This document shows, piece after piece, positions 1-55,170 of a DNA stretch of 60,915 nt. Each line of letters begins with the position of its first letter. Within the stretch, counting starts at the first letter, position 1. The translations under genes and the position numbers were made by a program. This DNA is from an uncultured Gammaproteobacteria bacterium (GTDB lineage: Bacteria; Patescibacteriota; Patescibacteriia; UBA9934), in NCBI GenBank assembly GCA_964401485.1, contig CAYNYL010000001.1, positions 2,103 through 63,017 on the forward strand, read 5' to 3'. The notes below the pieces were generated by a model, which was given only the letters and a program-made list of their open reading frames with translations, did not search any database and was not told the origin of the DNA.

Positions 1-56
1 TCGGTCGGGGTCGGGGTCGTCTCGGTCGGGGTCGGGGTCGTCTCGGTCGGGGTCGT
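1..56. repeat. 21-bp tandem repeat, about 2.7 copies visible, encoding TTPTPTE
   Basis: tcggtcggggtcggggtcgtc at 1-21 and 22-42, partial copy at 43-56. Confidence 0.9.
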
Positions 57-323
57 CGTGGTCGTCGTCCCGTTCGCCGCCTCGAGGGCGGAGACGCGGT
101 CCGTGAGCTCACGAATCTCCCGCCGACGGCGGTCGAGGCTGGCCGCGATGCGAACCACCTCGAGCCGGGTCTCGTCGGCGCGCTGACGCGCCTCGGCGAG
201 GTCGAGCTCGGCCGTCGGGGTTCCGCTCGGCTGCGCCGGGCGGCCCGCGGGGGCCGCCGGCTGGGACTGCGCGAACGCGGTCCCGCCGACCAAGAAGGAG
301 AGGACACAGAGGAGGTTGCGCAT
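1..323 (-). CDS. Secreted protein, runs off the window edge: signal peptide, coiled coil, Thr/Pro repeat linker (not in ORF track)
   Basis: Manual translation from ATG at 323: MRNLLCVLSFLVGGTAFAQSQPAAP...ELTDRVSALEAANGTTTTTTPTETTPTPTETTPTPT. Open to base 1; GGAGG at 330-334; high GC3. Confidence 0.8.
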   Translation of the reverse strand, partial: MRNLLCVLSFLVGGTAFAQSQPAAPAGRPAQPSGTPTAELDLAEARQRADETRLEVVRIAASLDRRRREIRELTDRVSALEAANGTTTTTTPTETTPTPTETTPTPT

Positions 324-506
324 GATGCGCCTCCAGCCCATCTAAGGGCGTTAGGGTTTACTTTGCACTGACCGCACGATCCCGCTTTCGCGGAAGGATG
401 CCGCCAGCGCGTTGCGACAATCCTTTGACTCGGCATCTAAAAGTCGGAGGGGAGCTTAAAGATACCGGGTCGAAGGATTGCCGCAGGCTTGAAAGAACGA
501 CACACA

Positions 507-535
507 TTTATAGCATTTTTTGAGGATTTTGTCAA
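507..535 (-). promoter_or_regulatory. sigma70 promoter for the gene starting at 323
   Basis: Minus strand TTGACA-17 nt-TATAAA with TG extended -10. Confidence 0.7.
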
Positions 536-590
536 TACTGAACCCTGGCAAAAATGAAAAAACGCCCGAAAATAGGCATAATTTACGATC

Positions 591-620
591 TTGACAAAAA
601 ACCCCCCTTTCGGCTAAAGT
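591..620 (+). promoter_or_regulatory. sigma70 promoter with no downstream plus-strand ORF
   Basis: TTGACA 591-596, 18-nt spacer, TAAAGT 615-620. Confidence 0.5.
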
Positions 621-625
621 TCGGT

Positions 626-717
626 CAACAAGTCCCCTTCTAGGGCTTTTTCCTGAAACTTGTGACACCTCCTCCTTGTCGCAATGGATGGGAAATGCCC
701 CAAAAGGGGATTTTTTT
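626..717 (+). ncRNA. Candidate small RNA with anti-SD (CCUCCUCCU) hairpin loop
   Basis: Upstream promoter; stem 660-667/677-684 with loop CCTCCTCCT; CCCC-AAAA-GGGG hairpin plus T7 at 698-717. Ends are estimated. Confidence 0.4.
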
Positions 718-1633
718 ATGTCCAAGAAGCTGTTAAAAAGAGGGCCAAAAGAAGGGTCGCGCTTACAAATAAATACCGCTTAAGAAGCGCAGGCGAAAGC
801 TTATCGAGTAAATGAATTCGCGTGATTCCAAGATAAAGATAGAAGAAGATCGTAAACACGGCCGAGTTGACAAGGAAAAACGTTGGGAGCATCGAAACCG
901 CCAAGTAGACCTCGGTTAGTAGCACCGCCCCAACGAAGGCAAACACCCTGCCCTTTTCCGGAACAATCTTACTTACCCAAAACACGCCCTCGATCGCAAA
1001 CAGCGAAATCCAAAAGACCATGAGCGCCGGAATCCAGACTGGAAGAAGGAGGAAGAGCTGCACCGCATAAGTCCCCGCCGTGAAGAAAAACATTCCAATC
1101 AAGAACAAAATGAACGAGAGATACTCGAGCGCATAGGCTTGGTACGAGCTCGGGAGATGATAAAAGGCAAACAAGTTTTCGGCATACAGCCAAACGCCAA
1201 GCGTTACAATAACCCCAAGCAGCAACTTAATCGCCGTAAACTCAAGAAAAAGAAAGAAGAGTAACGAAGCGCCGAGGAAGAAAAGTGGCGTAAGAAAAAA
1301 TGACCAAAACGCTACGGACTGTGGTCGCCAATCAACAAACCAATCAAAGACAATCTTTGCAAGAAGTGCGTAAATTGCCACGTGCCAAAGCTCCAGATCA
1401 GTTCCGAAATACAACGTGGCCCCAAGAAGAATTCCTCCCGTAAGGAACGTATAGACCCAAAAAAACGGCGTTTGCGACTGCCATTTAAGTAATCGCGCGA
1501 AGAGAATCGCGATCAACAGGAAAAATCCCGCAACGACGCTAACGTGCACTGAACCAGCAAATTCAAGAATCAGGTAAAGCACCAGGGTCGCAAACCCAAT
1601 CGCGAGCGCATTAATTCGATAAAGCAGGATCAC
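716..1633 (-). CDS. Multi-pass membrane protein of unknown function
   Basis: 305 aa, almost entirely hydrophobic helices; overlaps the upstream gene by 4 nt. Confidence 0.75.
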   Translation of the reverse strand: MILLYRINALAIGFATLVLYLILEFAGSVHVSVVAGFFLLIAILFARLLKWQSQTPFFWVYTFLTGGILLGATLYFGTDLELWHVAIYALLAKIVFDWFVDWRPQSVAFWSFFLTPLFFLGASLLFFLFLEFTAIKLLLGVIVTLGVWLYAENLFAFYHLPSSYQAYALEYLSFILFLIGMFFFTAGTYAVQLFLLLPVWIPALMVFWISLFAIEGVFWVSKIVPEKGRVFAFVGAVLLTEVYLAVSMLPTFFLVNSAVFTIFFYLYLGITRIHLLDKLSPALLKRYLFVSATLLLALFLTASWT

Positions 1634-1995
1634 AGCGAAGCGGTTACAAATGGATAGAGTGTCTTAATTGTCCGAATTACCGGTTCTAAATCCGCTCCCC
1701 CTTGAATTCCATTCCCGACAAGAAGCGTCATTGCAAGATGTGCCTCCGTGTATTCTTTTGGCACCGCCTGTAGACGAAGCGACTCAAAGAGCGCATCACC
1801 GTCTTTATCCTCCTCGTAGGTTGAGAACATTTTTTGCACAGCGAGCTCGTAACCTACTTTCGTTACCCCAAGCGTCTGCGATAACGGTTCTTGTTCTAGT
1901 GGTTCCATTTCTCTCCCATATTCAATCGCCACAATCGCAAACAAGAGAATGAACGTGAGGCCAATTAAAATATGTGGAAACCAGGAACGGTGCAT
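1630..1995 (-). CDS. Hypothetical protein with N-terminal TM helix
   Basis: 121 aa, tightly packed between neighbours in the same orientation. Confidence 0.7.
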   Translation of the reverse strand: MHRSWFPHILIGLTFILLFAIVAIEYGREMEPLEQEPLSQTLGVTKVGYELAVQKMFSTYEEDKDGDALFESLRLQAVPKEYTEAHLAMTLLVGNGIQGGADLEPVIRTIKTLYPFVTASL

Positions 1996-1996
1996 A

Positions 1997-3058
1997 TTAT
2001 CCTTTTAACTCGTACCATTCTTTGATGACAACTCCAAGAATCATCGTAAGTGGAATCGCAAGGAGAGAACCAATAGCCCCGGCAAATATTGAATGATAGA
2101 GGAGAATCCCGACCTCGAACCCAACCGCGACTGCGATAATCGTAAAGACGGGCGAAATCCCCCCTACCCGCTTAAAGACGTTTGGCGTGATTACGTGATT
2201 TTCAAGTTGTTGAATAATGAAGAATCCGACCGCCGTTGCCCCGGCGAGCGGAAGCGAAACGGTTGATGCAACGAGCGTCGCAACAAGTCCTGCAACATTC
2301 GGTCCAAGAAATGGAATAATCTCGAGAAAACCGCCAATGAGCGCAAGAAGTAGAGCAAACGGGACATCAAGGATCGTAAGAACGATGAAATCAAGCGCGA
2401 AAATGATGATCATGATCAAAATCTGTCCGCGAAGCCAGGCGCTTACCTGTACCTGAACCTTTGGAACAAGCTTGAACAAAAATTGTTTCCATTCGATTGG
2501 GAAGTTGATTGCGTCAATCCCCTTTCGAATCGAAGAGCGTTCAAGAACAAGGTAGAGCGCAAGCACCATGACGATAATAATCGTGAGTGCACCTCCAAAC
2601 GCCGAGCTCACAAGTCCGCCAAGATAGTTCGCTAGATCAAAGATATTCCCGCTTGTCACGCCCTGACTTGAGAGAATCTCGGCGATTTCCGAAATATCCT
2701 CTTTAAAAATAGCCCCTGACGTGACGTTTTCCACGATTGGATACTGCGTAAGAAAGGCGGTAATCGGTCCATTGTACTGATCCGCTAACTCGGTAATTTG
2801 ACGGGCGAGCGACGGAAGAATCAATGCGGATAGAAGAACGAGAAGACCGATGCCCACGAGATAGCTCCCAACTACAGTTAGCGCCATCGGTACGCGAAAT
2901 CGAGCGAAGTACTTTGCCGTCGGCTCAACAAGAGCAGCTAGGATAAGTGAGGCGAAAACAATAATCGCGACGTTCTTTAAGAAATAAAGACTCGCTAAAA
3001 CAACAACGATCCCAAAGATCATGACCAAAGGACTCCCCGTCTTTTCTCGACTTCCCAT
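1997..3058 (-). CDS. AI-2E family (PerM-like) transporter
   Basis: Motifs WLRGQI, EIIPFLGP, IIQQLENHVITPNV, ISPVFTIIA, GSLLAIP. Confidence 0.9.
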   Translation of the reverse strand: MGSREKTGSPLVMIFGIVVVLASLYFLKNVAIIVFASLILAALVEPTAKYFARFRVPMALTVVGSYLVGIGLLVLLSALILPSLARQITELADQYNGPITAFLTQYPIVENVTSGAIFKEDISEIAEILSSQGVTSGNIFDLANYLGGLVSSAFGGALTIIIVMVLALYLVLERSSIRKGIDAINFPIEWKQFLFKLVPKVQVQVSAWLRGQILIMIIIFALDFIVLTILDVPFALLLALIGGFLEIIPFLGPNVAGLVATLVASTVSLPLAGATAVGFFIIQQLENHVITPNVFKRVGGISPVFTIIAVAVGFEVGILLYHSIFAGAIGSLLAIPLTMILGVVIKEWYELKG

Positions 3059-7150: not shown

Positions 7151-8035
7151 ATGAACCAGATCGAAACCTGCCTCGAGAACCTCGAGAACGCGCGAGATGC
7201 GCTTCTCACGGCGCAGGGAGAGCAGGCCACCGCCGAGCGCGAGCTCGCGACGGCGAAGACCGTCCTCGACACGGCGAAGGCCGCAACGCCCCAGGACGCC
7301 ACGGCGATCGCGACGGCGCAGACCAACTTCGACAAGGCGACCGAGACGGTCACCAAAGCGAAGAAGGCCACGAATCGTGCCAAGGCTGGGGTGATCGCAG
7401 CCGAGGGCTCGCTCAAGCGCGCCCAGGATCTGCTCACCGCCCCGCCCGAAGCGCCCCCGTCGGTCAGCGAGCGTGCGTTCCCCTTGATCGTCGCCTCCCT
7501 GGTCGGCCTCACCGCGGTCGTCGTCGGCCTGCTCTGGGCCTACGGAAGCGCGCCCGAGCTCGCGACTGCCGACGCGCTCGACAGCGTGGCGGTCGACGTC
7601 CGAGCGACGAAGGGCAAGGTCACGGAGCTCAAGACCCGCATGACCGACGTCGAACGTCGGATCACGCTGATGGAGCAGGTCCCGACGACGTCGCGCGCCG
7701 GAGCGGTCGTCACGACCCAGGGCTCGGCCGTCGACCCGACCACCCTCGCGGTGGCGGCGTCGGACGTCAATTGGTATCCGGCGAACGAGGAGGAGCCCAA
7801 CCGCTCCTTCTGGACCCGGCCGGACGGCGTGACGGTCGTGTTCATGGGAGTGCTCCTCGAGGACGCCTGTTGGCTCGCGAACGACACCAACACGATGCTC
7901 GGGTGCAACGTCCGCGAGTCGGACAAGGCCCCGTTCCTCGCCTCCTGCGGGGACGGCCCGCGCGGGATCAAGGCCGCGACGGCGACGTGCCCCGAGGTGG
8001 TCATCACCTCCTCGGCGCCGCTCACCCGCGGCTGA
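7151..8035 (+). CDS. GC-rich hypothetical membrane protein: Ala-rich coiled coil, TM helix, coiled coil, Cys-containing C-terminal domain
   Basis: 294 aa, high GC3, SD AAGGAG, hydrophobic LIVASLVGLTAVVVGLLWA. Confidence 0.8.
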   Translation: MNQIETCLENLENARDALLTAQGEQATAERELATAKTVLDTAKAATPQDATAIATAQTNFDKATETVTKAKKATNRAKAGVIAAEGSLKRAQDLLTAPPEAPPSVSERAFPLIVASLVGLTAVVVGLLWAYGSAPELATADALDSVAVDVRATKGKVTELKTRMTDVERRITLMEQVPTTSRAGAVVTTQGSAVDPTTLAVAASDVNWYPANEEEPNRSFWTRPDGVTVVFMGVLLEDACWLANDTNTMLGCNVRESDKAPFLASCGDGPRGIKAATATCPEVVITSSAPLTRG

Positions 8036-53223: not shown

Positions 53224-53267
53224 ACCGTCGCCTCGTCGGCAGTCCCTGAAAAGACATGCCGGCGAGC

Positions 53268-53306
53268 CCCTCAATGCGCATGAACCAAGTTCGTGCTTAT
53301 CGAGGG
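53268..53306. repeat. Structured repeat, copy 1
   Basis: CTCAATGCGCATGA-ACCAAGT-TCGTGCTTATCGAG. Confidence 0.85.
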
Positions 53307-53357
53307 ACCTTTCCCAAATCAACCCCAGCGCCGCTTTGCGCGGCAACGGAGGCCACC

Positions 53358-54245
53358 ATGGCCCGTTCGAACATCATCAGCCTCTCCCTCGCCGCCACCC
53401 TCTTCGGGGGTTGCGACCCCGCGGATGTGTACAACATCACCGTGGAGAGCGACGAGGCTGACACGTTCGTCGACATCGACGTCACGGTGACCCCGGCGTC
53501 CGAGGAGACCGAGAGCGACTGCGAGCCGTTCGTGCATGAGCACAGCGGCGTGCGGTTCAACACCGCGTCGCGCCCGACCGTCGAGTTCAACTCGACCCTG
53601 ACGGGCTTCGCGACCGACATCGGAGATTCGCTGGACATCGGCGGCGCCTTCCACACGGTCGGCGGATGCGGAGAAGGGGTCACGATCGAACAGATCGCGA
53701 TCAACATCCGCAACCTCGAGAGCGTCGACCTCCTGACCTCGACCGTGGCGACCGTCGTGATCGACGGGCACAGGATGAGCGTCGAATGCACGCCCGTGAC
53801 CTACCCCGACGGTCTTGTCGAGTACTGGTGCATCATGGATCTCTCCGTCCAAGACGGCGAGTTCGATGTCCTGCCCAACTCGAACGGCGTCCCGTTCCAG
53901 CTGGTCCTCGACGAGCTCCCCGAGCTCAAGAGCGGCGAGCAGTCGACGGTGACCCTCTACTACAAGTGGAGCGACATCGAGACCGGGAATGGGTACGTAG
54001 ACGGCGGCGGATGGGCCGTGATCGACAGCGACAGCTTCGTGATCGACCCCTACTACGCCGACGAGTGGTGCTACACTCGCGAGCGTCGCCTCGCGGACAA
54101 CGACGGCGACACCTACGGGGATCCGAACAACTACCTGTTCGTCGCCGTGTGCGATCCGTGGCAGGACGGCTACGTGGACTGGACCGAGGGTCGTGACGAC
54201 TGCGACGACAACAACGCGGACGTCTACCCCGGCAACGGTTGCTGA
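53358..54245 (+). CDS. Lipoprotein with C-terminal MopE-like putative metal-binding motif
   Basis: Lipobox FGG-C; DNDGDTYGDP; DDCDDNNADVYPGNGC; SD GGAGG. Confidence 0.8.
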   Translation: MARSNIISLSLAATLFGGCDPADVYNITVESDEADTFVDIDVTVTPASEETESDCEPFVHEHSGVRFNTASRPTVEFNSTLTGFATDIGDSLDIGGAFHTVGGCGEGVTIEQIAINIRNLESVDLLTSTVATVVIDGHRMSVECTPVTYPDGLVEYWCIMDLSVQDGEFDVLPNSNGVPFQLVLDELPELKSGEQSTVTLYYKWSDIETGNGYVDGGGWAVIDSDSFVIDPYYADEWCYTRERRLADNDGDTYGDPNNYLFVAVCDPWQDGYVDWTEGRDDCDDNNADVYPGNGC

Positions 54246-54348: not shown

Positions 54349-54375
54349 TTTTTTATTTTTCATGGCATTTTTGGC

Positions 54376-54404
54376 TTGACAAAAGCCCATTTTTCCAGTA
54401 ATAT
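54376..54404 (+). promoter_or_regulatory. sigma70 promoter for 54454
   Basis: TTGACA-AAAGCCCATTTTTCCAG-TAATAT. Confidence 0.7.
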
Positions 54405-54453
54405 GCTCGGTTGCGTTTTTGCAACCCCAGCCTTAAATGGCTATGGAGTTCCT

Positions 54454-55170
54454 ATGTTCCGCACCCCCGCCACCGTTGTCGTGGCGTTCGCCCTTTCGGC
54501 CTGCACCGCTCCCGTCGTCCCCGAGGACGACTCGGCGAGCGAGACGGGCGGATTCGAGGACACCGACCCGGTCGAGCCCCTCCCCGAGGACCCGATCGTC
54601 GTCACCGTCGCCCTATCCTTCATCCCCCTCCCCGACGGCGTCACCTACGCGCGCCAAGGGGAGCCGGCGCCGCTCGGCGGGATCGACATCGCGGTCGAGC
54701 CGACCGACACCCGTGTGATCTTCGAACGGATCGCACCGAAGATCGCGCTTGCGATCGAGGAGTGGCTAGAGATTCCCTCCGCCTTCTCGACCGATCCGAC
54801 GATCCCGAATCGTGACCGTCTCGTCGGCGAGTGCACCCTGCAGGATCTGTGGGGTACAGTCTACGGGGGACCGGTCGGGATCGAAGGCTGGGACCTCACC
54901 TTCAACGACGGCTTCGTTGTCTACGGAGGTGAATCGATCACCTTCTCCACTGCGTGCACCCCGCCCGACGGTACGAACCCGTACCCCTTCGCCTTCGGGA
55001 TCGATCTCCCGATCGAAGAAGACGGCGAGATCGAGGCGTACGCGGAAGACAAGGAGGGCAACCGGCTCGAACTCCAGTTCGAGTACCGAAACATGAACGG
55101 GCTCCCCTACCCGTCCTCGTACGTGCTCCTCCCGTACGACCTCGGCTGGCCGGGCGATTCGCCAAACTGA
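54454..55170 (+). CDS. Lipoprotein of unknown function
   Basis: MFRTPATVVVAFALSA-C lipobox; acidic linker; beta-rich domain. Confidence 0.8.
   Translation: MFRTPATVVVAFALSACTAPVVPEDDSASETGGFEDTDPVEPLPEDPIVVTVALSFIPLPDGVTYARQGEPAPLGGIDIAVEPTDTRVIFERIAPKIALAIEEWLEIPSAFSTDPTIPNRDRLVGECTLQDLWGTVYGGPVGIEGWDLTFNDGFVVYGGESITFSTACTPPDGTNPYPFAFGIDLPIEEDGEIEAYAEDKEGNRLELQFEYRNMNGLPYPSSYVLLPYDLGWPGDSPN

Follow-up and report, generated by a model that had tools for sequence, protein, structure and literature searches.

A structured 5' leader with an anti-Shine-Dalgarno loop represents a previously uncatalogued RNA family in a small-genome, Patescibacteria-like order

Introduction

Stable hairpins that expose an unpaired, C-rich motif complementary to the Shine-Dalgarno (SD) sequence are known from RsaE/RoxS (RF01820) and from hairpins 7, 13 and 14 of S. 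aureus RNAIII, a molecule that is both an mRNA and a regulator. In the activator pseudoknot of IncI-alpha/IncB repZ and in the preQ1-II and SAM-II pseudoknots, translation is set by long-range pairing between a hairpin loop and the ribosome-binding site. For the long, structured 5' leaders of Lactobacillus slpA and E. coli ompA, which work by pairing at the 5' terminus, a conserved anti-SD loop is not known, and the STAB-SD of cry3A is an SD-like leader sequence that binds 16S rRNA. To our knowledge, regulatory RNAs of Patescibacteria are almost undescribed, and the cells of these bacteria possess very few protein regulators.

Here, we describe a 5' leader at positions 330-500 of the window (the whole 60,915-nucleotide stretch of DNA that was analyzed) and confirm that it is one member of a real, previously uncatalogued RNA family. 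The leader is a well-supported, lineage-limited structured RNA that displays in a hairpin loop an anti-SD copy of the docking sequence of the ribosome. Throughout, G000 denotes the source genome of the window, G001 its sister genome, and G110 a genome of another genus.

Results

Anatomy of the leader at the source locus

The original prediction held that a structured 5' leader stands behind a promoter and contains a long hairpin, a CCGC-GAAA-GCGG hairpin and a small hairpin adjoining the SD. All three structures are present where they had been placed, and the leader was borne out by a near-consensus promoter and by its folding energy. The promoter, the hairpins (HP1, HP2 and the small one), the SD and the ATG all lie on the minus strand and can be read directly, as follows.

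530-535, minus strand: -35 box TTGACA, read directly
507-515, minus strand: extended -10 box, TG-n-TATAAA, read directly, separated from the -35 box by a 17-nt spacer
486-500, minus strand: 5' head of the transcript with GUUCUUU, about 15 nt, predicted to be single-stranded (unpaired in the minimum free energy (MFE) fold)
413-485, minus strand: HP1, a long imperfect hairpin of 73 nt (MFE fold, covariance model matches and covariation)
446-451, minus strand: apical loop of HP1, CCCUCC, with the anti-SD pentamer CCUCC at 446-450 (unpaired probability about 1.0)
365-410, minus strand: HP2, with a GAAA tetraloop at 386-389 within CCGC-GAAA-GCGG (393-382) (MFE fold)
336-349, minus strand: small hairpin adjoining the SD (MFE fold)
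330-335, minus strand: SD sequence UGGAGG, read directly
321-323, minus strand: start codon ATG, read directly
1-323, minus strand: 5' part of the gene, encoding a signal peptide, a coiled coil and a Thr/Pro repeat (from the ORF lists), the rest of the gene lying across a 100-N gap on C1:1182-2000

HP1 consists of a 13-bp base, a 3-bp helix between two C-A mismatches, and an 8-bp helix with a U-G wobble. When positions 310-510 of the minus strand were folded with RNAfold, the free energy was -92.1 kcal/mol compared to a mean of -61.2 kcal/mol (sd 4.6) for shuffled sequences (z = -6.78), and none of the 200 shuffles reached the native energy. Folding of the sense strand is 16 kcal/mol more favorable than that of the antisense strand (-71.6 vs -55.6 kcal/mol), and the GNRA and UNCG tetraloops are found on the sense strand only. 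The proposed complementarity between the loop sequence CCUCCG and the UGGAGG of the gene proved correct, with six pairs including one G-U. In the nested fold, pairing with codons 4-5 largely sequesters the SD of the window (unpaired probability 0.03). No terminator was detected between the hairpins and the gene, either in the window or in the other members checked, which takes attenuation out of consideration.

Promoters similar to that of the leader are present elsewhere in G000. The GUUCUU(U) motif recurs about 8-15 nt past the -10 box in unrelated, strongly promoted transcripts of this genome and its relatives (window positions 491-497 and 53070, C1:144905, and loci L006, L007 and L012), and could pair with AAGAA just 5' of the SD in some leaders. 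Upstream of the promoter, the intergenic segment at window positions 600-715 (minus strand) is also highly conserved in G001; it contains AAGGAGGAGG, an imperfect hairpin and a terminator-like hairpin, the stem of the latter differing between G000 and G001.

The junction between the leader and the GC-rich gene

The GC content rises from about 47% upstream of the leader to 72-84% in the gene, with a step from 0.44 to 0.77 across the leader element, and the window opens at a 100-N scaffold gap inside the Thr/Pro repeat. Together with the other contigs of 60-70% GC in the bin, these features raised the suspicion of a chimeric join, that is, of a 47%-GC genome assembled to 75%-GC contaminant DNA at the end of a scaffold. 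The sister genome G001, however, contains this junction too, bordered on either side by orthologous DNA: the same upstream gene for a 305-aa membrane protein and the same promoter, a leader identical over 107 nt, and, after the leader, a complete orthologous high-GC gene of 366 aa. Furthermore, in G110, a diverged leader and its gene are embedded in a 39.8-kb contig with DNA of 49-56% GC on both sides, and 29 genomes share the arrangement of leader followed by GC-rich gene. We therefore reject an assembly artefact, the probability of which we consider negligible.

The comparison with G001 also bears on the smaller hairpins. The helix of HP2 is retained, and its apex changes from GAAA to a UUCG tetraloop with compensatory changes in the stem. 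The sequence of the small hairpin is not conserved; in G001, a different small hairpin overlaps the SD.

The G000 bin is uneven in composition, although it was scored as only 0.1% contaminated. Contigs C4 and C21 have 30-34% GC, and C14, C16, C20, C23, C26, C28 and C31-C38 have 60-70% GC, with host-type promoters present in C14. Some of these off-GC contigs may be contaminants and others separately assembled GC-rich islands.

A lineage-limited RNA family

The scan against Rfam that accompanied the original prediction as a suggestion was run and identified no known family. The minus strand of window positions 1-3000 gave no match in Rfam 15 at E <= 10, and the hairpins of 10 other members gave none at E <= 0.1, which places the leader outside Rfam. 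Covariance models were limited to HP1 because MAFFT misaligned HP2. Model R1, derived from two near-identical sequences, was too narrow and, beyond the genus, matched G110 only; R2, built from G000 and G110, recovered further copies in the family; and R3 was built from six copies. The R3 model matched 36 of the 151 genomes of the order (about a quarter), mostly with one copy per genome, including 28 of 64 and 7 of 65 genomes in two sister families. As a specificity control, 150 other genomes sampled across the class were searched with R3 and yielded no matches. The leader family was thus found to span two sister families of this small-genome, Patescibacteria-like order. A pattern scan of metagenomes returned 10 loci, of which nine were chance matches in coding DNA and one was the G110 contig itself.

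In one genome, G084, the leader copy is preceded at a distance of about 110 nt by another, shorter hairpin with a CCUCCUCC loop (L067:1707-1795, minus strand). A CCCUUU/AAAGGG stem closes this hairpin and a U-run comes after it, all upstream of the promoter of the leader; the motif may thus exist here as an independent small RNA.

Conservation and covariation of HP1

Across homologous leaders, a test for covariation, as suggested in the original prediction, revealed strong structural selection on HP1. In 28 aligned copies, 93.3% of the cells form standard pairs, and compensatory changes affecting both partners occur in 26 of the 30 pairs (219 cells). The covariation score was 0.728 compared to 0.228 for shuffles, with 0 of 500 shuffles reaching the observed value, and sliding the partner by 1-3 columns reduced pairing to 44% or less. 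The alignment was fitted to the model and hence favors the structure of the model; each sequence folded alone yields the same hairpin. The stability of HP1 ranges from -31 to -53 kcal/mol in all members folded.

When the 30 homologues were folded independently by MFE, every apical loop contained CUCC or CCUCC, usually in the form CCUCC, CCUCCUCC or CCUCCA, making the anti-SD pentamer the most conserved unpaired feature of the hairpin. Such conservation is what a functional contact between the loop and the SD predicts. The other conserved parts of HP1 are the basal UCC/GGAG helix, the GGCC-type helix between the mismatches, the GGYRUC/GAYRCC helix with its U-G wobble, and a 2-nt bulge on the 3' side, whereas the apical stem varies freely. 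Besides the loop motif, a single bulge is the only conserved unpaired position, with U in at least 70% of the sequences. Conservation of HP2 and of the SD-adjoining hairpin was not found beyond the genus, and the spacer between HP1 and the start codon is not conserved, ranging from 33 to 175 nt across the family.

The organism and its ribosome

The genome is about 1.09 Mb in size and was scored as 100% complete. Neither Omp85 nor ribosomal protein L30 was found in it, which, along with its small size, fits Patescibacteria. In GenBank, the sister MAG G001 (L026, contig CAZBFR010000043.1) is titled 'uncultured Gammaproteobacteria bacterium', a title at odds with its genome of about 0.8 Mb and with a lineage that lacks Omp85 and L30.

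The idea that the ribosome in the lineage of the leader has lost its anti-SD was drawn from Tsurumaki 2022 (PMC9297842). It was rejected: two family members retain the canonical anti-SD tail at the end of their 16S rRNA, and the genome encodes uL1. Given that the 16S rRNA retains its anti-SD, GGAGG is a genuine ribosome site for which the loop is able to compete.

The downstream gene and its protein

A promoter of the form TTGAC-N-TGnTAnnnT precedes the hairpin at 28 of 30 loci, at a distance of 13-102 nt in 26 and about 190-220 nt in two, and an SD-led ORF starts 33-175 nt after the hairpin at 29 of 30. The product of this ORF has a signal peptide, followed by segments of coiled coil and a beta-type C-terminus rich in Gly/Ala. 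For the leader-headed proteins (window 1-323 with G000:C1:1182-2000, and loci L037, L041, L052, L057, L058, L060, L063-L065 and L068), AlphaFold suggests, with low confidence (pLDDT 53), a coiled-coil stalk and an 8-stranded beta domain. Nine of about 22 complete proteins terminate in F or Y after a stretch of alternating hydrophobic residues, resembling the outer-membrane beta-signal, and the look-alikes of the protein in the atlas are porin and OMP_b-brl clusters (0.89), a lead only. No Pfam family was identified for the leader-headed protein.

The 26 downstream proteins fall into 18 BLAST groups. The G001-type protein has only three relatives among 5.8 billion proteins and a single locus in the genome collection. 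With the downstream proteins so diverged, no part of the locus is better conserved than the leader.

The leader-headed genes have a GC content of 0.61-0.74 and a GC3 of 0.71-0.97 in genomes of about 50% GC. In G000, a GC3 of at least 0.75 occurs in only 18 of 672 long ORFs (about 3%). High GC3 was considered as a sign of high expression and rejected, the GC3 of EF-Tu in G000 being 0.45.

Other GC3-rich ORFs of G000 include those at window positions 7151-8035, 53255-54242 and 54375-55167, and many stand behind TTGACA-AAA..TTTT-TGCTAT promoters. SD-like motifs precede 73% of the GC3-rich ORFs vs 24% of ordinary ORFs, in an approximate count into which some shadow ORFs entered. In the high-GC block, the leader-headed gene is followed by one (G000:C1:2-1048, L001, minus strand) that encodes five MopE-type putative metal-binding repeats (PF11617, E = 4e-41), a family typical of high-GC diderm bacteria such as myxobacteria.

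Predicted pairing of the loop with the SD

Complementarity between the loop and the SD of the same mRNA was present in all 25 members tested, with 5-7 bp and a duplex energy of -4 to -12 kcal/mol. It is poor, about -4 to -5 kcal/mol, in G019, G094, G114 and G012. The mean duplex energy of cognate loop-SD combinations (-8.51 kcal/mol) was indistinguishable from that of non-cognate ones (-8.53 kcal/mol; permutation p = 0.54), such that, across the 25 members, no genome-specific co-variation of the loop with its own SD was detected beyond the constant core. Thus, of the loop-SD pseudoknot originally proposed, the complementarity and the invariant loop pentamer held up, and co-variation of the two partners did not appear. 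The co-variation test has little power, since the anti-SD tail of the ribosome constrains both partners as well. The base following CCUCC is mostly A, whatever stands before GGAG. Local pairing already occupies the SDs for the most part in nested folds (mean unpaired probability 0.22), so that a contact with the loop may be unnecessary or hindered.

Discussion

Proposed mechanism

We tentatively favor, at slightly below an even chance, a leader that acts in cis as an anti-SD element, throttling or gating translation and probably also stabilizing the mRNA. This reading builds on the observed structure, its conservation, the invariant loop motif and the fixed place of the leader between the promoter and an SD-led gene. 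The near-consensus sigma-70 promoter would start the transcript shortly upstream of the leader, and the very stable HP1 would fold first, its apical loop presenting CCUCC, the pentamer of the 16S anti-SD tail. A variable structured spacer (here, HP2 and the small hairpin) would follow, and then the GGAGG-type SD and the gene for a predicted secreted, coiled-coil and beta-rich protein with extreme use of G/C-ending codons. Through a loop-SD contact of 5-7 bp, the loop may rival the ribosome for the SD of its own mRNA, and such a contact would throttle or gate translation initiation of an export protein that is presumably transcribed very strongly. The stable hairpins would probably also lengthen the life of the mRNA. 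From this arrangement, we infer that the leader may function as the translational switch envisaged in the original prediction.

Alternative explanations

The same loop could instead act on other transcripts, the leader being a dual-function or trans-acting anti-SD RNA, of which the loop, in the leader itself or in a fragment processed from it, binds SDs on other mRNAs in the manner of the C-rich loops of RsaE/RoxS or RNAIII and co-ordinates those accessory genes, a minority, that are SD-led and GC-rich. Any GGAGG suits the loop equally well, and non-cognate SDs pair with it as well as the cognate one; the concentration of SD-like motifs in GC3-rich ORFs (73% vs 24%, by rough count) points the same way, as does the second hairpin of G084, which, with its CCUCCUCC loop, terminal U-run and position upstream of the leader promoter, looks stand-alone. 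We nevertheless consider a trans-acting role unlikely, given that in 29 of 30 genomes the hairpin sits inside the leader with no terminator before the gene, and that it occurs as one copy per genome, always tied to one type of gene. A second candidate partner is a protein: HP1 could be an operator, its loop and conserved internal motifs serving as the target of an RNA-binding protein through which the translation, stability or membrane targeting of this mRNA is controlled, the candidates being a KH-type protein with affinity for the anti-SD sequence or the regulator of the gene product itself. The conserved paired and bulged positions (UCC/GGAG, GGYRUC/GAYRCC with the U-G wobble, the 2-nt bulge and the shifting C-A mismatches) exceed what helix stability needs, and the conserved A after CCUCC is unexplained by SD pairing; likewise, the two conserved helices and the bulge are unexplained by an anti-SD role and hint at a protein partner. 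With no candidate protein gene linked to the locus and upstream neighbors that differ between genera, we regard an operator of this kind as improbable.

A pure stability or processing element, which would protect the 5' end of an abundant mRNA or serve as an RNase III site with an incidental loop sequence, is consistent with very stable hairpins directly behind the near-consensus promoter of a probably abundant envelope protein, and a helix of at least 30 bp is long enough for RNase III. An incidental loop, however, would not keep CUCC or CCUCC in 30 of 30 homologues while the flanking stems are rewritten, and the predicted unpaired 5' tail of 13-100 nt is poorly suited to 5'-end protection; we judge this explanation to be quite doubtful. 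The riboswitch- or thermometer-like behavior suggested in the original prediction, in which a ligand or heat opens an SD-hiding structure, is very improbable. It would accord with the presence of two or more hairpins upstream of the SD and with a short loop-SD contact that could be temperature-sensitive. However, no riboswitch or thermometer in Rfam matched the leader, and its conserved part, in the 28-sequence alignment, is a single continuous helix without a junction or pocket, followed by a non-conserved spacer (33-175 nt). As for a thermometer, the SD (330-335) lies outside HP1, 78 nt downstream of it, and HP1, at -31 to -53 kcal/mol, is too stable, unlike the ROSE and fourU elements.

Implications

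This RNA offers a testable model of post-transcriptional control in bacteria in which most genes appear to lack an SD. The leader probably heads whichever envelope or host-contact gene is expressed most strongly in a given genome and, as the best conserved part of a fast-evolving locus, provides a handle for finding such genes in new genomes. In a broader and rather unlikely scenario, the CCUCC-loop hairpin would be the control element of a special expression slot in episymbiont-type bacteria, in which a single promoter and leader act as a gate for SD-dependent translation, both in cis and, perhaps, on other SD-led, GC-rich genes in trans, with a hypervariable coiled-coil stalk and outer-membrane-type beta-barrel as the payload. 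Because the organism has no Omp85/BamA, the payload protein may be destined for the outer membrane of a host.

Comparison with known systems

Like RsaE/RoxS and hairpins 7, 13 and 14 of RNAIII, the leader presents an unpaired, SD-complementary motif on a stable hairpin. Its motif differs from theirs in being the full CCUCC, located in the 5' leader of the gene that follows and without a terminator of its own, and there is no similarity to RsaE/RoxS (RF01820) in either sequence or model. As with leaders of the slpA and ompA type, a strong promoter precedes a long structured leader, and the gene encodes an envelope protein with a signal peptide and a probably very high abundance; here, however, the invariant feature is the loop. 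In most members, the hairpin lies 13-102 nt from the -10 box. The inferred pairing of loop and ribosome-binding site parallels the long-range contacts of the repZ, preQ1-II and SAM-II pseudoknots, from which the leader is distinguished by having no visible ligand pocket, antisense RNA partner or leader peptide. With the STAB-SD of cry3A, the leader shares a sequence of the ribosome-docking type that stands at a long distance from the start codon in a gene with high, here probable, expression; in contrast to STAB-SD, it exposes the complement of such a site, an anti-SD that is unable to bind the 16S tail.
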